Source: a virus (taxonomy: Duplodnaviria; Caudoviricetes). From it: a DNA stretch of 33,513 nt. Below the pieces are notes generated by a model. The model ran no database searches, was not told where the DNA came from, and worked only from the letters and a program-made list of their open reading frames with translations. The stretch is from IMG/VR virus record IMGVR_UViG_3300037423_002137, positions 1 to 33,513 of that record; one strand, given 5' to 3'. A program made the position numbers and the translations under genes. This document shows, in pieces, positions 3,266 to 9,993 of this stretch; within the stretch, counting starts at the first letter, position 1; each line of letters starts with the position of its first letter.

Positions 3266-3438
3266 CGCTTCACCCTTTCACAGTATTTCAGGCCGGCTTT
3301 TGAGAGCCACGCCTTTGCCCAGCGAAGGAGCGTTTTGCACTCGGGGCAGACGACCTCGCCAAGGTCCTCGTCAACCCATTGGAGCACCCCCTCGAGGGGG
3401 TATTCGCAGCACCCGCACTTGACGGTTTGGGAGCTCAT
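3262..3438 (-). CDS. Small 58-aa zinc-finger-like protein
   Basis: Own translation: MSSQTVKCGCCEYPLEGVLQWVDEDLGEVVCPECKTLLRWAKAWLSKAGLKYCERVKR. It has two CxxC motifs and ATGA overlaps at both ends. It is below the ORF-track cutoff. Confidence 0.75.
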   Translation of the reverse strand: MSSQTVKCGCCEYPLEGVLQWVDEDLGEVVCPECKTLLRWAKAWLSKAGLKYCERVKR

Positions 3439-5537
3439 TTTTTGACAACGTAAAATTGCTTCCCGTTACTGCGCTTAAACTGGACCCAGTCGTAATCCTG
3501 TTGAACGAGCTTTTGCAGTTCGCGGCCGAGCGCGTTTCGGCTCGGGATCGTCGTATCGACGAGGCGTCGCAAGTTGTCCGTGTTCTGAAGTGCCACGAGC
3601 AACGCCGACGTGTTCCCCGTCCACTCCGTCTCGTCCGCGTTCGCGCGGAAATACTCCGTGCGCCACATCTCGAGGAGTTCGGCGAGGCCGGCTGTCGACG
3701 AGGACGCACGGGCGCTATTGATCAGGTCGGGATGATGAAACGAGTCGTGACCGAAGCGCGCGACCTCGCCCGGGCGCGTGAGCAGGATCTCCGGAATCCT
3801 GTAATCCCGGATAAATGCGGCGAAGAACGGAAGTTCCCGGGCGACGATTTCCTCGGCCCCCCGGAAATCAATCCCGGCGTCGCAGGCGAGGAGCATGACC
3901 AACTTGTCGAGGACTGAGTGGTCGATGTTGGGCAGCATCGCGATCGACTCCGGGTCATCGTTGAGGGTCACCACGAGCCGGCCGTCCCACCGCTGCGTCA
4001 CCGCGTCCTTGAATTTCGCGTGGAACTGTTGGTTCGGGTTGGCGACGATCTTTTTGACGATTTGGGAGTAAACCGCGTGGCGGCGCAGGTCCGCGCCCGC
4101 GACCGCATCGTCGATCGTCCAAACGGGTTTGTAGAAGAGCGAATTGTTGAACGTCGTGTTGCCAAGGACGTAGTCAGTTGCCTCGGAAAATCCTCCCATG
4201 AGGCCGCCGATGATGCGCCACGATAGGAACGTTTTGCCGGCGCCCGCCGGCCCGGCGATGAAGAGCGCCTGCCCCTTCTTCGGCTTCCCCTTCAGTGCGT
4301 TTTGATAGAACCGCGAGAGCCACGAGAGAAACACGTCGAGGTCCTCGGGGAAAATCCGGCCGAGGTAGTCGGCAATCCACGGGAAGTCCTCGCCCCAGTT
4401 CCGGGAATCCGGGGCCGGAGGCATGACGGCGACTCGCGAGATGTTGAGCAGGCGCTCGCCCTGACTCTCAACCAGGATGTCGGGGCAGAAGAGAAACGGG
4501 AACGCGCCGTCGACATGGTTACGGTCTTCGATCGCGGTCAGGCATTGGTCAACTTCCGCGGGCTTCCCTTTCTTCCGGTCACGACTGACCCCGTGCTTCA
4601 CGTTCAGGTGCCGAGCCATGATGTCCCCGTTGACCGAGGACCAAGTGTCACGGGCATCCCGATACCAGTAAAGCCGGCCGTCGAAAAAGCGGTTCTCGAT
4701 CGCCGCGGCGAACCGGGACTCGTTGAATGTGCGCACCCATTCAGCGCCGAAAATATCGGACCACGGGAGAAACCGGCCCTCGCCAGTGAACGCCTGCATG
4801 CCACCTTTGCGCACGACGGCACCGGACTCGTTATCCGCTTGGGGATCCCAGAAGCGGACGCCGCGGGCGCCCTCGACAAAATCGCCGTGCCAACGGCCAG
4901 GAAATCGCTTCGCGACTTCGGCCGCGACGATCTCGAGGGGGATGTCATCTCCGCCCAGGTCCGTGCGCTTCGACGCGTTCTCGATCAACGCCATCGTCGC
5001 ACTTACCGGGATAATCGGGGCGCCGAACGGCGCACGCCAGTTCGTGCCCAGTTCGTAGAACTGGCAGGTGTCGAAGAGCGCCTTGCGATCGAGCCCCGGG
5101 AAATGCTTGTTCAGCGCAAGCAGCTTCTCGAGCCCTTCGATGAAGCGCTCACCGCACGCTTGGTTAAAAATCGGGACCTTCTGTTCGAAAACGTAAATGA
5201 CGCGGAGTCCACCGGAGAAGGTCGAGGTAATGAACGCCGGGGAGTAGCTCGTCGGTTTGAACGCCTTAACCATGCTCTCGCTCACCTGCCCGTCGTAGTC
5301 GACGACGAGGCCGTGCAGCCATTGCGGCGGATTCTCCTTCGTCGGCCGCAGTGAGGGAATGCGCGGCTCCGTGAGCGAGAAGAACACATGGTCCGTCGTC
5401 TCGTCGACGCACCATGCGCGATACGCGGGCTTGTCGGCGAGCGTCGACGGACGTGCGTCGTGCTGTTGCAGCGTCTCGAGCGACTCTGTGATCAGCTCTG
5501 ACGAGGAGTGATTCCTGATGTAGAACGCCGGCGTCAC
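3435..5537 (-). CDS. Primase-helicase (prim-pol-like N-terminus, SF3/DUF5906-like NTPase C-terminus)
   Basis: GLVVDYD and TFSGGLRV primase-like motifs; Walker A GPAGAGKT, FN, Walker B WTIDD, VTLN sensor. Confidence 0.85.
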   Translation of the reverse strand: MTPAFYIRNHSSSELITESLETLQQHDARPSTLADKPAYRAWCVDETTDHVFFSLTEPRIPSLRPTKENPPQWLHGLVVDYDGQVSESMVKAFKPTSYSPAFITSTFSGGLRVIYVFEQKVPIFNQACGERFIEGLEKLLALNKHFPGLDRKALFDTCQFYELGTNWRAPFGAPIIPVSATMALIENASKRTDLGGDDIPLEIVAAEVAKRFPGRWHGDFVEGARGVRFWDPQADNESGAVVRKGGMQAFTGEGRFLPWSDIFGAEWVRTFNESRFAAAIENRFFDGRLYWYRDARDTWSSVNGDIMARHLNVKHGVSRDRKKGKPAEVDQCLTAIEDRNHVDGAFPFLFCPDILVESQGERLLNISRVAVMPPAPDSRNWGEDFPWIADYLGRIFPEDLDVFLSWLSRFYQNALKGKPKKGQALFIAGPAGAGKTFLSWRIIGGLMGGFSEATDYVLGNTTFNNSLFYKPVWTIDDAVAGADLRRHAVYSQIVKKIVANPNQQFHAKFKDAVTQRWDGRLVVTLNDDPESIAMLPNIDHSVLDKLVMLLACDAGIDFRGAEEIVARELPFFAAFIRDYRIPEILLTRPGEVARFGHDSFHHPDLINSARASSSTAGLAELLEMWRTEYFRANADETEWTGNTSALLVALQNTDNLRRLVDTTIPSRNALGRELQKLVQQDYDWVQFKRSNGKQFYVVKK

Positions 5538-6070
5538 AGGAGTTCGTTTTGAATGAACTCGTGAAGGCGGCGGACGTCGCGGGAGCCGGCGTAAAAATTG
5601 AAATCGACGAGCGACTCGTCAACCCCGGCTTCGCTCTTGTGCGTAGTCTGGACCGTGCCGTCCAATTGAAGGCGAATGATCACTCCGCCTGCGGCCCGCA
5701 CCGCCCTCGCCTCGTTGTCGAAACGGACGTCGTCGAACACGACGCCGAGACCTAACCCGCGGAGTCGAGCCGCGCGACGCATGGCGGTGTCAGTCCAGAG
5801 CGTCGGCGAGATCGTCTCCCGACCCCACTCCGTTCCGAGAGTTTGCAAAGCGTAACGTGGCGTCTTGCCGTTCAGTGCGGGGTGCGGCTGCTCCTTTGCC
5901 ACCGGGTCTGCCATCACTTCGCAAGGCACGCCGAGAACGTGCAGCATGTCGCGTAGCGGGTCGGCGAAGCTTACTTTCTTGTAACCGAGACCGACGAGAA
6001 ATTTTGCAGCGGTCGTTTTGCCGGCGCCAGCAGCGCCAGTGAATCCGATGAGGGGAAAACGGTAGTTCAT
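5534..6070 (-). CDS. Deoxynucleoside monophosphate kinase
   Basis: IGFTGAAGAGKT, SFADPLR, TPRYALQTLGTEWGR, DDVRFDNE, HKSEAG. Confidence 0.92.
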   Translation of the reverse strand: MNYRFPLIGFTGAAGAGKTTAAKFLVGLGYKKVSFADPLRDMLHVLGVPCEVMADPVAKEQPHPALNGKTPRYALQTLGTEWGRETISPTLWTDTAMRRAARLRGLGLGVVFDDVRFDNEARAVRAAGGVIIRLQLDGTVQTTHKSEAGVDESLVDFNFYAGSRDVRRLHEFIQNELL

Positions 6071-7287
6071 GGTTTTGAAATCAAACGTTGAGCGAGGACA
6101 CGGAAGGCGCGTTCAGCGGTGGCGGGGACGACCCCGTTTCCGAGGAGCCGCAGTTCGTCCACCCGATAGGAACGCCCATAAGGCACTCGACCCATCGGGG
6201 GTTCAGTTTGCCCGAGGATGGTGGGCTCAAACGAACCGCCCCAGGAAGCCCGGTTCTCGGGTCCCTCGCGTCGAAGTTGCCCCGTTTCTCCGGGTCGTTG
6301 GTCCTCGGCGTCGGCCACGCCTTCACCTGTCCCGGCAACATCAATCGAGGTTTTGAGTGGTTCCCCTGATCGTATTGGTAGTCCACCCCCGCCGCATCCG
6401 CCGTTCGAGGAGTTGCCCAAGCTTTCACCTGAAGCTGAAGGTCCGTCAGTGACACCCCGAGCGAATTTCCCCGGGCAACCGAGTCCCTCTTCCGACGGAT
6501 AAATTGTTCCGGGGTTCCGCCCGCCGGTTGCGCACAGGGTGTCGCCCACGACTCGGGGAGGTTCCCAGTCGAACTGGGGTTCTGATGGACGGCTCGGCCA
6601 AGCAGACAGTTCACCGGAACATTCGCGCATGACGCTGCTGTCCCGTCCTTGTGGTCCCGTGTTGTTGGAGTCGGCCAGGCCGACTCCAACAACACGACAG
6701 TTGTCAATGATTCCTGCGAACCCCTCATCCCCCGCGACCTGTCTTGGAAACCAAGACGGGCTTCCGATGCTGCGACGGTAGGCCAAGATGAAGACGCGTT
6801 TTCGTTGGTGCGGCGCGCCGACTTCAGCCGCCGAGAATAATCCCCACGTTGTTCGATAACCGAGGCTTTCCAAATCTTCGATGACGTCTCGGAGTCCGAG
6901 GGTGACATGTCCTTCGACGTTCTCAAAGAAACAGACGCCGGGTCGCATCGCGTCGATACCGTCGCGGATGTAGGGCCAAAGGTGCCGAGGGTCCTCGTGT
7001 CCGAGGCGCTTTCCCGCGGAACTAAACGGCTGGCATGGATAGCCGCCAGAAAGCAAGTCCACGAGTCCTCGAAATTTTGCGTATGGGAAGGTTTTAAGAT
7101 CCGTCCAGATAGGTGCCGGGTCCAGCAGGCCCGCTTCCATCTTTGCGACCAGGTTCGCACAGGCGAAGGCTTCGATCTCACTAAAAGCGATTGTGCGCAG
7201 ATTTGGGATTGCTCGTTTGAGTCCGAGGTCAATGCCGCCATATCCGGCACAAAGGGAGACGTGTGAAATTGTTTGGGGAGTATCCAC
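6067..7287 (-). CDS. C5 cytosine DNA methyltransferase, catalytic (alpha) polypeptide
   Basis: Motif I SLCAGYGG, IV GYPCQPFS, VI ENV, VIII HQRKRVF, X LLGNGVVP. Motif IX is not evident in this frame. Start is GTG 7287 or GTG 7308. Confidence 0.92.
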   Translation of the reverse strand: MDTPQTISHVSLCAGYGGIDLGLKRAIPNLRTIAFSEIEAFACANLVAKMEAGLLDPAPIWTDLKTFPYAKFRGLVDLLSGGYPCQPFSSAGKRLGHEDPRHLWPYIRDGIDAMRPGVCFFENVEGHVTLGLRDVIEDLESLGYRTTWGLFSAAEVGAPHQRKRVFILAYRRSIGSPSWFPRQVAGDEGFAGIIDNCRVVGVGLADSNNTGPQGRDSSVMRECSGELSAWPSRPSEPQFDWEPPRVVGDTLCATGGRNPGTIYPSEEGLGCPGKFARGVTDGPSASGESLGNSSNGGCGGGGLPIRSGEPLKTSIDVAGTGEGVADAEDQRPGETGQLRREGPENRASWGGSFEPTILGQTEPPMGRVPYGRSYRVDELRLLGNGVVPATAERAFRVLAQRLISKP

Positions 7288-7289
7288 AT
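6081..7289 (-). CDS. Overlapping alternative-frame (beta) polypeptide of the C5 methyltransferase: TRD-like W[PA]TP modules plus motif IX
   Basis: A 402-codon same-strand ORF nested in the MTase gene. It has five W[PA]T[PV] modules and ends in GKLNPRWVECLMGVPIGWT, a motif IX-like segment. Confidence 0.8.
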   Translation of the reverse strand: MWILPKQFHTSPFVPDMAALTSDSNEQSQICAQSLLVRSKPSPVRTWSQRWKRACWTRHLSGRILKPSHTQNFEDSWTCFLAAIHASRLVPRESASDTRTLGTFGPTSATVSTRCDPASVSLRTSKDMSPSDSETSSKIWKASVIEQRGDYSRRLKSARRTNENASSSWPTVAASEARLGFQDRSRGMRGSQESLTTVVLLESAWPTPTTRDHKDGTAASCANVPVNCLLGRAVHQNPSSTGNLPESWATPCAQPAGGTPEQFIRRKRDSVARGNSLGVSLTDLQLQVKAWATPRTADAAGVDYQYDQGNHSKPRLMLPGQVKAWPTPRTNDPEKRGNFDARDPRTGLPGAVRLSPPSSGKLNPRWVECLMGVPIGWTNCGSSETGSSPPPLNAPSVSSLNV

Positions 7290-7781: not shown

Positions 7782-7939
7782 TCCTTGCCCTCCTCTTCGT
7801 CCTCGCCGAGGGCGAGCAACGCCCGGGTCATGCTATTGAACCCGGAGATGAAAAAGAAGGCGACGAAGCCCGCGGTCTGACCGACGAAAAAGATCGGGAG
7901 CCCGACCAAAAGAAAAATGCCCCGGAGAAATGTGATCAT
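7778..7939 (-). CDS. Small membrane protein (53 aa)
   Basis: MITFLRGIFLLVGLPIFFVGQTAGFVAFFFISG..., with ATGA overlaps on both sides. Confidence 0.65.
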   Translation of the reverse strand: MITFLRGIFLLVGLPIFFVGQTAGFVAFFFISGFNSMTRALLALGEDEEEGKE

Positions 7940-9993
7940 TTGGTGTAGTGCTTTGAAATTTTCCCCTCGGCCGCCACGGGCAGGCCGGCTGCCCACGCCG
8001 GCGTTTCGCCGAGGATGTCGAGAGCCTGCTTGATCGTCTGCCCGGCCTGCATTTCGAGAATGACCTCGTCGTGGACGTGGAAGAGCACGCGGAAGCCGGC
8101 TGCTTCCAAGCGGAGGACGCCGAGCGCGAACACGTCGCGGGCGATGGCCTGCACGCAATTCTCGACGGCAAGCCCGCCGTAAACGCGCGTGACTTTGAAC
8201 GCGCCGGGGTTGCCCTGCTTCGCAGTCCAGCCGCCGGACGAGGAGACGTTGAAGTATTTGAGCGATCGTCCAGACGGCAGCTCGTTTTCAAACACGCCGT
8301 CGGAGACCGAGGCTTTGAACGCAGCGTCGAGCGTGCCCCAGAAATCCTTGATCAGCGGATTATCGTGACGGAATCCCATCACCTGAACCCACGCGTTGAC
8401 CCAGATATTTTTTTCCCGGCGGTCGAGTTCCGTGTTGAAGAGCAGAATTTTCTTTTTCGCTTCCCGGTTGTTCTTCACGTTCGCCATCCATGCGAGGAAC
8501 GAGAGAAACGCCTCTTCCTGCTCGGCCGATACCTCGGCGTTGAAGATCAGTTCGAACTCATCCGCCGAGACGTATTGCAGCACCATCGTAATGAACTTGT
8601 GCCAGCCGGCGCCGTAACCGAGGGCGAGGACGCGGGCCTTCGCCAAAGCGTAAAGCGCCGGGTTTTCCGTCTTCAGCTCGCCGCCGGTCCATCCCATCGA
8701 CGCGCGAGCGTGCGCCTCGTAGGGCGACATTCCGGAGGCGCAGTAAGCGAGGAAGTCGCGATTGCCGACGATCCAGTTGAGGACGCGCGGCTCAATTTGG
8801 GAGAGATCAGCAATGCCGAGCGTGCCGACGATGCAGGACCGCGCGTCGATCACCTGGCATTCAGTGAGAGGAACGATGACGTCACCGAGCCGGCCGCCCG
8901 TCACCTTGCCCTTTTTGTCCGTGATGCGGTCGAGCCACCGAAATTCCTCGTCGAGAAGGAGCGGCTGCTTTTCGAGATTGTGCAGCGAGACACCGCTTGT
9001 GCCGGACCAGCGGCCCGTTTTCTGGGCGCCAAAATACATGAGGCCGATCGCCGCCCGTCCATCGGGCCGGATCCGCTCGAGCCACGATTCAAAGAGATTC
9101 AGCGCCCGGTTGATCTTGCGCCAGTGGGCCAGTTGCCGGAGCGCCGGCACCGCATCGCCGTATTCGTCGAGCCATTCGATGAACTCGGCTTTCTTGATCG
9201 AAGTCGTCGAAGGAACCGGGACGTCGGCCTTCACGCATTCCTTCTCGATCGCCCGGGGCGAAGTCAGTGCGTAGGGCTTCCCCTTCTCGTCCGTCTCCGT
9301 AATCCAGGGAATCGACTGCTCAATGACCCAGAGCGCCTGTTTCAGTGTGCGGATGTAGCCGTCGAGCTTTTCCCGGTCCGTCGGGATCCCGCGAAATTCG
9401 ATCTCGCCGGTGTGAAGCGAAAGTTGACGCTCGTGTTCCGGCCACTGCGGCGAGAACTTTTGCCAGAGAAGCCATCCAAGAATGGCGTCGTCCAAGGCAT
9501 ACACGCACACTTCGTTCCGGAATTCCGGGGACATGTCGGTCCAGCGTTTCCCCTTCATGCTGTCACGCGTCGTCTTCGAATGCGTGATCTCCAGGCCGTA
9601 GGCCGCCGCGCCAGCGAGGTTACGGGGAAGGTGGCACCATGCGGCGAGGTCGGCGGTGTCGTGCCAGACCTTCGGGCGAACGTTCGGGACGAGCTTCTGC
9701 TCAATCAGCCGCTCGATGACGGTCCGGTCGAAATTGCGGTTGTGCGAGAGCCACGTGCGACCCGCGATTTTTTCCCACGGTGCCTGACTCGGGTGTCCGA
9801 CGAAAGAAATGTCGCGGCTGAAAATGGAAACGAGGTAGCAGTCCCAATCTGAGTGCCGGCAATACGCCCAGTTCCCGAGGTCCTTCACCGAACACGTTTT
9901 CGAGTAAAACGTCTCGGTATCGACCATCACTGCGTCCGGGTCGGGCGCATTGAGCAAAGCAGTAGCTACGGCAGCTTGGAGAACGGGGCTCAT
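7936..9993 (-). CDS. polA: Family A DNA polymerase with 3'-5' exonuclease domain
   Basis: Exo motifs DTET, HNRNFD, YALDD; polymerase motifs TGRWSG, A (ADLSQIEPRV), B (KARVLALGYG), C (HVHDEV). Confidence 0.95.
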   Translation of the reverse strand: MSPVLQAAVATALLNAPDPDAVMVDTETFYSKTCSVKDLGNWAYCRHSDWDCYLVSIFSRDISFVGHPSQAPWEKIAGRTWLSHNRNFDRTVIERLIEQKLVPNVRPKVWHDTADLAAWCHLPRNLAGAAAYGLEITHSKTTRDSMKGKRWTDMSPEFRNEVCVYALDDAILGWLLWQKFSPQWPEHERQLSLHTGEIEFRGIPTDREKLDGYIRTLKQALWVIEQSIPWITETDEKGKPYALTSPRAIEKECVKADVPVPSTTSIKKAEFIEWLDEYGDAVPALRQLAHWRKINRALNLFESWLERIRPDGRAAIGLMYFGAQKTGRWSGTSGVSLHNLEKQPLLLDEEFRWLDRITDKKGKVTGGRLGDVIVPLTECQVIDARSCIVGTLGIADLSQIEPRVLNWIVGNRDFLAYCASGMSPYEAHARASMGWTGGELKTENPALYALAKARVLALGYGAGWHKFITMVLQYVSADEFELIFNAEVSAEQEEAFLSFLAWMANVKNNREAKKKILLFNTELDRREKNIWVNAWVQVMGFRHDNPLIKDFWGTLDAAFKASVSDGVFENELPSGRSLKYFNVSSSGGWTAKQGNPGAFKVTRVYGGLAVENCVQAIARDVFALGVLRLEAAGFRVLFHVHDEVILEMQAGQTIKQALDILGETPAWAAGLPVAAEGKISKHYTK

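Follow-up and report, generated by a model that had tools for sequence, protein, structure and literature searches.

Two overlapping open frames of a probable phage cytosine-C5 methyltransferase gene, paired at one ATGTG, with a shuffled cassette array in the second frame

How can one phage DNA methylase gene hold two same-strand frames that overlap almost completely and open at a single ATGTG, and do these frames supply one enzyme? We addressed this question in the virus record IMGVR_UViG_3300037423_002137 (Caudoviricetes; 60% G+C), of which the whole analysed stretch of 33,513 nucleotides (nt; 33.5 kb) is referred to below as the window. An earlier reading of the same DNA, hereafter the original prediction, claimed that two frames stay open over about 1.2 kb, that their start codons overlap as ATGTG, and that a C5 methyltransferase (MTase) is split between them. 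The coordinates of both frames were confirmed (alpha 7287-6067, beta 7289-6081), and the overlap was seen as described. All features of the locus lie on the minus strand. The alpha open reading frame (ORF; 6067..7287) starts with GTG and encodes 406 amino acids (aa) of a catalytic chain with motifs I, IV, VI, VIII and X, while the beta ORF (6081..7289; ATG start, 402 aa, +1 relative to alpha) encodes a conserved N-terminal part, then an array of cassettes and a motif-IX-like segment. The start overlap (7285..7289) consists of the beta ATG (7289-7287) and the alpha GTG (7287-7285), which have one G in common. That the locus yields two chains of any kind is, in our judgement, very probable. We also consider it fairly probable, from the sequence comparisons described below, that these chains come from one initiation region and together make up an orphan methylase, probably a multispecific one, by which phage DNA is protected against restriction.

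The third frame of the same strand carries 16 stops across the alpha/beta span of the window. When the part of beta containing the cassettes and motif IX was recoded synonymously (200 trials), the alpha frame remained open in 0 of 200 cases, with 5.2 stops expected. Recoding of alpha motifs I-VIII (200 trials) left beta open in 5.5% of cases, with 2.4 stops expected, and for this half of the gene the window recoding alone is not decisive. This last value (P = 0.055) and the 60% G+C content, which favours open frames, speak for a beta frame that is open by chance, or that assembly has created through two compensating indels. Against this, three contigs from one public DNA run, which may be the source sample, showed no base or indel differences from the window outside positions 6667-6692 (uncovered), and the +1 frames of two single-chain controls, Dcm and M.SPbeta, contain 14 and 41 stops, respectively.

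The relatives examined were the best 80 of 227 viral relatives, picked with the alpha query; a search with the beta profile matched at least 549 viral stretches, which is hard to reconcile with an accidental frame, and a genome scan gave 10. In 79 of the 80, no stop breaks beta anywhere between motif I and the end of the IX-like segment, and both frames are whole, with motif X in alpha, in 73 (71 by pattern; loci L030 and L081 by eye). The remainder consists of four loci with X in beta, L029 (off the contig end), L058 (a stop in alpha) and L074 (scrambled by frame changes). The third frame contains stops in every relative, and the identity of their beta frames to that of the window is 35-53%. 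Synonymous recoding was applied as a null model for stops to 59 de-duplicated loci of 84 (L005, L006 and L023 dropped out through pattern failure). Beta-frame stops over alpha motifs I-VIII numbered 0 in 59 of 59 loci against a mean expectation of 5.2, and 7.3 alpha-frame stops would be expected beneath the beta cassettes and motif IX; the codon usage of this null was crude, taken from the flanks, and the loci are related and hence do not represent 59 independent tests. The sequence divergence among the relatives is large enough that an unused frame would have closed. The original prediction had proposed stop avoidance across homologues as a check and interruption of the second frame as evidence against it; the near-total dual coding it described is kept in the relatives.

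Two departures from the common layout were seen. The lone stop in alpha of L058 (L058:641-643) takes the place of a conserved Trp ahead of motif VIII, with beta whole, and may reflect a pseudogene, a read error or read-through. L103 (L103:2462-3753) is possibly a three-piece form, in which the N-terminal part of beta ends near the alpha stop after the mid-gene motif, and the cassettes, IX and X resume in the frame of alpha 6 nt later; L074 is similarly scrambled.

Codon-position mismatch was determined for 53 loci (the 59, minus five with X moved or scrambled, minus one truncated). At alpha positions 1/2/3 it amounted to 0.36/0.14/0.16 in the leader, 0.13/0.10/0.47 around motif IV, 0.46/0.13/0.05 under IX and 0.10/0.06/0.53 under X. 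Of the 45 fourfold degenerate alpha sites in residues 2-170, 13 are fixed to 90% or more, four of them invariant (corresponding to beta L35, V144, R154 and P170), compared with 0 of 14 in residues 79-116 and 0 of 13 under X. The constrained stretches of beta coincide with its helices, predicted by AlphaFold2 (AF2) only at residues 24-37, 43-60, 71-82 and 130-163. A whole-region test of fourfold identity against the flanking genes gave, by identity band, 0.51 vs 0.44, 0.58 vs 0.55, 0.65 vs 0.60 and 0.78 vs 0.61; it was set aside because the excess is modest and confounded by gene mobility, and the per-site test was used instead. Selection switches between the frames along the gene, and in places both frames code under each other; the N-terminal half of beta is under selection of its own beneath the catalytic part of alpha. 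The claim that each frame is filler where the other is informative held in part: the middle of alpha is variable and beta is unconstrained under motifs IV and X. It failed for the N-terminal half of beta, which is selected, and for the mid-gene motif of alpha, which is kept. With zero stops against the null, frame-specific selection and 79 of 80 relatives open, a chance frame or artefact was ruled out; its probability is negligible.

Alpha carries the motifs that the original prediction assigned to it: (i) motif I (LCAGYGG, aa 12; 7234..7254), (ii) motif IV with the catalytic Cys (GYPCQPF, aa 82; 7024..7044), (iii) motif VI (ENV, aa 122; 6916..6924), (iv) motif VIII (RKRVF, aa 162; 6790..6804), directly after which the first beta cassette begins, and (v) the core of motif X (LGNGV, aa 382; 6130..6144), followed by a helix at residues 387-403 with a high predicted local distance difference test score (pLDDT). 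The motif labels on both chains were assigned by means of consensus sequences together with Pfam and PDB alignments. In the Pfam search, an analysis suggested by the original prediction, alpha residues 9-173 matched PF00145 (E 2e-33), and beta gave no match in Pfam or NCBIfam. Of the features that define the PF00145 family, motifs I, IV (PC), VI (ENV) and VIII, the catalytic fold and the X helix are all present in alpha; the target recognition domain (TRD) and motif IX are not found on this catalytic chain, the IX-like segment being in beta. The AF2 model of alpha (mean pLDDT 65) is of high confidence over residues 1-175 and 385-400 and disordered in the middle, where residues 185-380 are mostly of low confidence and variable; its top Foldseek matches are M.HaeIII and M.HhaI (E about 1e-12). 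Within this region lies a conserved motif, WPSRP..WEPPRV (6550..6600), located beneath the beta spacer that separates cassette 2 from cassette 3, with seven invariant columns in 58 of 58 aligned rows. In L103 and L104, alpha stops just past it.

Beta matches phrog_1008 ('DNA methyltransferase') of PHROG with an E value of 9e-27. Its cassettes are repeats headed by W-[PA]-T-[PA], of which the window contains five: cassette 1 (6678..6785; WPTVAASEARLGFQDR...), of a type represented by 11 of the 243 cassettes parsed; cassette 2 (6579..6677; WPTPTTRDHKDG...), of a type also present in Klebsiella and Salmonella phages; cassette 3 (6420..6548; WATPCAQPAGGTPEQF...), also in a Burkholderia phage and a cyanophage; cassette 4 (6318..6419; WATPRTADAAGVDYQYDQG...), also in L002, L003 and L005; and cassette 5 (6222..6317; WPTPRTNDPEKRG...), a singleton in the sample. 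Cassettes 2, 3 and 4 recur almost intact in those phages and loci, at other positions. The 243 cassettes were parsed from 68 beta frames (0-9 per gene) and fell into 108 clusters, i.e. 47 types seen at least twice and 61 singletons, with no identical cassette string in any two parsed genes. Relatives with a single cassette are L086 and L021. The parsing was automatic and rough: it produced one false cluster (12) and one chained cluster (1) and missed heads lacking Trp. The singletons inflate the apparent distinctness between genes. The cassettes constitute a shuffled array of variable number, located precisely in the gap that separates the end of motif VIII from motif IX, and they probably behave like the tandem TRDs of the multispecific methylases of Bacillus phages. 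They are followed by the motif-IX-like segment (6168..6209; KLNPRWVECLMGVP). A profile of this segment, run on E. coli Dcm, selected as its best window RLTPRECARLMGFE, which is motif IX of Dcm (2 of 1000 shuffles were as good). In the ESM Atlas, beta residues 165-385 lie nearest to PF00145 clusters (10 of 10 named matches, score 0.81), which is a lead only.

In five loci (L037, L043, L055, L059 and L104) alpha ends before motif X, and X is instead joined to the end of IX in the frame of beta. Motif X can sit on either chain, an argument for a single active site to which both frames contribute and as expected of two parts of one enzyme. A tree built by a quick method, in which 39 of 69 inner branches are open, scatters the eight loci without X in alpha and forces at least five changes; it does not distinguish recurrent origin from recombination of 3′ ends. 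Two further loci, L165 and L171, have X in beta and no IX match. In L037, L055 and also L043, all with X in beta, alpha ends in a Cys-rich tail (C-x2-C...C-x2-C...H...C-x-C), which could bind zinc.

The order of these parts would also suit a single recoded polypeptide, in which translation shifts by +1 past motif VIII to read the cassettes and IX and then back by -1 to read X (or shifts only once where X is in beta). Cassette 1 begins exactly at the end of VIII, the shifted product would have the canonical motif order, extra frame changes occur in L103 and L074, and the same question was left open for gp6/gp7 of the mycobacteriophage Corndog in the available portion of PMC4351075. Recoding is nevertheless improbable. 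It has no need for beta's own ATG, for the 170 stop-free codons upstream in beta or for the invariant residues among them, nor for the open filler and mid-gene motif of alpha, and alpha contains no stop at either supposed shift point.

The overlapping starts are paired throughout the relatives. In 84 of 84 parsed loci the beta ATG precedes an alpha start codon (ATG, GTG or TTG) by 2, 5, 8 or 11 nt (56, 25, 2 and 1 loci; 38, 18, 2 and 1 after de-duplication), where offset 2 is ATGTG and offset 5 is ATG..ATG. A partly overlapping set, picked with beta, gave paired starts in 72 of 72 parsed loci (33, 31 and 8; eight were unparsed). Changes of layout keep both start codons, that of alpha always being ATG, GTG or TTG, and in isolated phages of Synechococcus (Yong-M2-251 has ATGTG) and Acidovorax both frames likewise begin at ATGTG. 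The leaders are A-rich (45%). From this pattern we infer that co-initiation may be a conserved trait of the clade. There is an experimental counterpart: in E. coli reporters, AUGUG starts both frames when a Shine-Dalgarno (SD) sequence sets a 12/14 spacing (Kohl et al., PMC9841429; this and the other published systems are cited from the available portions of the papers).

According to the reading we favour, that of one orphan methylase built from two chains, ribosomes would likely start at both codons, and the resulting alpha and beta chains would assemble into one cytosine-C5 MTase. Alpha would bind S-adenosylmethionine, hold the catalytic Cys and return motif X to its place by looping out the filler; beta would supply motif IX and the DNA-recognition part. 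Each cassette may act as one TRD, as in the multispecific enzymes of Bacillus phages, and one gene would thus methylate several sequences, shielding phage DNA from host restriction, while the single initiation region would couple the amounts of both chains. In its fullest form this reading holds that a widespread phage gene purposely uses ambiguous initiation at one AUGUG for both chains of about 400 residues, with a combinatorial library of recognition cassettes in the second frame (at least 47 recurring types), gained, lost or swapped without closing either frame. The product would be a multispecific methylase directed against restriction, and annotation would not show its specificity code. 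We put this full form slightly below an even chance.

Several results weigh against the favoured reading, the first of them concerning initiation. No SD sequence was found upstream of the window ATGTG, where it was looked for; an SD-like site occurs in 21 of 59 loci, and its spacing is not conserved. Among the 38 ATGTG loci, the 12/14 SD spacing is present in two and 13/15 in four. Distant relatives start beta well within alpha (184 nt in for Paenibacillus phage Leyra; also in Klebsiella, Salmonella and Burkholderia phages), and the two-frame design therefore does not need co-initiation. Two chains could be made with the ATGTG overlap being incidental, if one of them starts at another codon (GTG 7308 for alpha, an internal ATG for beta) or if each starts by reinitiation after an upstream gene. 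The window does offer such codons, GTG 7308 in frame with alpha and, at codon 17 of beta, an ATG, and no SD precedes its ATGTG; an upstream frame of at least 45 codons has its stop at -3 to +4 nt from the beta ATG in 28 of the 59 loci (a raw count, without a chance baseline); and beta Trp2 is partly forced by the alpha start codon. Such an incidental overlap has a low probability, as both start codons are retained in all 84 loci in four spacings, the beta sequence WILPKQL is conserved where the alpha residues vary (mismatch of 0.16 at position 3 vs 0.36 at position 1), and GTG 7308 has no counterpart in most relatives.

The other results that count against it concern beta. AF2 gave beta alone a predicted template modelling score of 0.23, i.e. 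a poor fold, and neither beta nor its profile had any match among PDB sequences at E 10. The cassette heads were not significantly similar to M.SPbeta (100 of 1000 shuffles as good) or to Dcm (492 of 1000), although the best window in Dcm was RTLSARYYKDG. The beta IX profile, compared with M.SPbeta, was equalled by 432 of 1000 shuffles and had an hhalign probability of 0.1; hmmsearch found no domain in M.SPbeta, which makes its shuffle figure of 500/500 meaningless. With the fused beta+X proteins, Pfam and NCBIfam gave nothing relevant, Pfam finding no IX-X even there. The TRD-like modules and IX-like segment that the original prediction placed on beta are present as five W-[PA]-T cassettes and a IX-like segment, with no significant match of the cassettes to known TRDs.

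An alternative is an enzyme assembled from two chains that has a single specificity or has its specificity seated in alpha, e.g. in WPSRP..WEPPRV; beta would then be motif IX plus a scaffold, and the cassettes would be tolerated repeats or only one of them would be used. The TRD of M.EcoHK31I has been assigned to alpha, the mid-gene motif of alpha has its seven invariant columns, and AF2 confidence is low for most cassettes. An invariant motif cannot, however, account for diverse specificities, the cassettes are conserved as units across unrelated phages at precisely the place between VIII and IX, and the ESM Atlas placement of beta points the same way as a lead. We regard specificity residing in alpha as unlikely, though less so than either recoding or an incidental overlap.

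The favoured reading, of two chains forming one methylase, has a precedent in M.EcoHK31I of E. coli (YGGCCR), an alpha/beta C5-MTase (PMC2836561, PMC3404938), with which the original prediction compared this locus. The likeness holds for the split: in both there are two same-strand frames, with motifs I-VIII and X on alpha; motif IX of M.EcoHK31I lies on beta in the other frame, where the window has its IX-like segment. The comparison follows the published description of M.EcoHK31I, whose gene was not found in the plasmid set. Unlike that of the window, its beta is smaller and wholly within alpha, the first ~42 residues of beta are dispensable, and, as a further point against the favoured reading, the TRD has been assigned to alpha. 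In the window, beta has about the length of alpha and starts 2 nt before it, its N-terminal half is selected, the cassettes are shuffled and there is no fixed endonuclease partner. In M.AquI (CYCGRG), alpha contains I-VIII and beta the distal variable region and IX-X (PMC3404938). This partition differs from that of the window, where X is on alpha, and was found in L037, L043, L055, L059 and L104 (4 of 80 viral relatives plus L104), which still overlap from a shared start.

The multispecific C5-MTases of the Bacillus phages SPR, phi3T, rho11 and H2, and M.SPbeta (PMC8936443, PMC5923457), resemble the window gene as orphan phage enzymes with tandem variable modules between VIII and IX; they differ in having a single chain and a single frame, and the window cassettes have no significant match to M.SPbeta. 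Split methylase genes whose products are unresolved in the source were described for Corndog gp6/gp7 and the halophage phiH (PMC4351075). There too, parts of a phage C5-MTase lie in two overlapping frames; the overlap is partial, the second gene contains C-terminal helices, and no shared start or cassette array is described in the available portion. As regards initiation, the natural AUGUG-type cases named in PMC9841429 (short peptides at E. coli pqiA and tamA; Thermus rpmH/rnpA) likewise have two start codons 2-5 nt apart that open two frames. The second products in E. coli are peptides of 10-15 residues of unknown use and depend on SD spacing, whereas in the window group both frames comprise about 400 codons and are conserved, often without an SD.

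The two-frame heterodimer is already known; what appears to be new is its full-length co-initiated form with a cassette array in the second frame. Neither was found in the full-text literature, in which subscription journals and the original work of the 1990s are thinly covered, and the two-frame layout is absent from the available portions of PMC4472890, PMC3706429, PMC6070908 and PMC11855218. The gene would be a natural, conserved case in which both products of an AUGUG are long and needed, a point of interest since PMC9841429, as far as available, left open whether second products matter. Frame-specific mutants of this gene would bring the question raised by Corndog, two chains or recoding, within reach of a test. 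Should each cassette read a single sequence, the array would also provide a large set of short, swappable 5-methylcytosine specificity modules for the prediction of viral methylomes and for engineering.

In the window the methylase is flanked by genes for a deoxynucleoside monophosphate kinase (5534-6070), whose ATG overlaps the alpha stop, preceded in coordinates by a DUF5906 primase-like gene (3435-5537), and, upstream, for a PD-(D/E)XK nuclease (PF11645; 7380-7781), situated between the methylase and a divergent family-A DNA polymerase (7936-9993; weak Pfam match only). All are on the minus strand. The PD-(D/E)XK gene was considered as a cognate restriction enzyme and rejected, because it is near the methylase in only 1 of 80 relatives. 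The methylase neighbours are each shared with 1 of 80 relatives, and this lack of conservation identifies the methylase as a mobile orphan gene. Relatives of the methylase were seen in prophage-like contigs from Verrucomicrobiota, Lentisphaerota and other groups, and L095 is a locus of Geminisphaera colitermitum TAV2.

The expectation that gene callers drop one subunit was borne out by eight GenBank phage records that were examined: one lists both frames (Paenibacillus phage Leyra), three alpha only, and four beta only or a piece of beta. Three of the four beta-only records name the non-catalytic frame a methyltransferase and omit alpha, namely Acidovorax phage Alfacinha3 (L089:2001-3167), Klebsiella phage VLCpiM12a (L091:1656-2531) and cyanophage Cy-LDV1 (L090:2322-2876). 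This exposes a systematic annotation gap for two-frame methylases in GenBank phage records.

The internally starting beta of Leyra opens with QLTLF (L093:1755-1800), which we take to resemble a sliding-clamp-binding motif, and betas of the Burkholderia type have DLFG nearby. In Burkholderia phage vB_PL1 a reverse transcriptase gene lies just upstream of the two-frame methylase (L094:465-1463).

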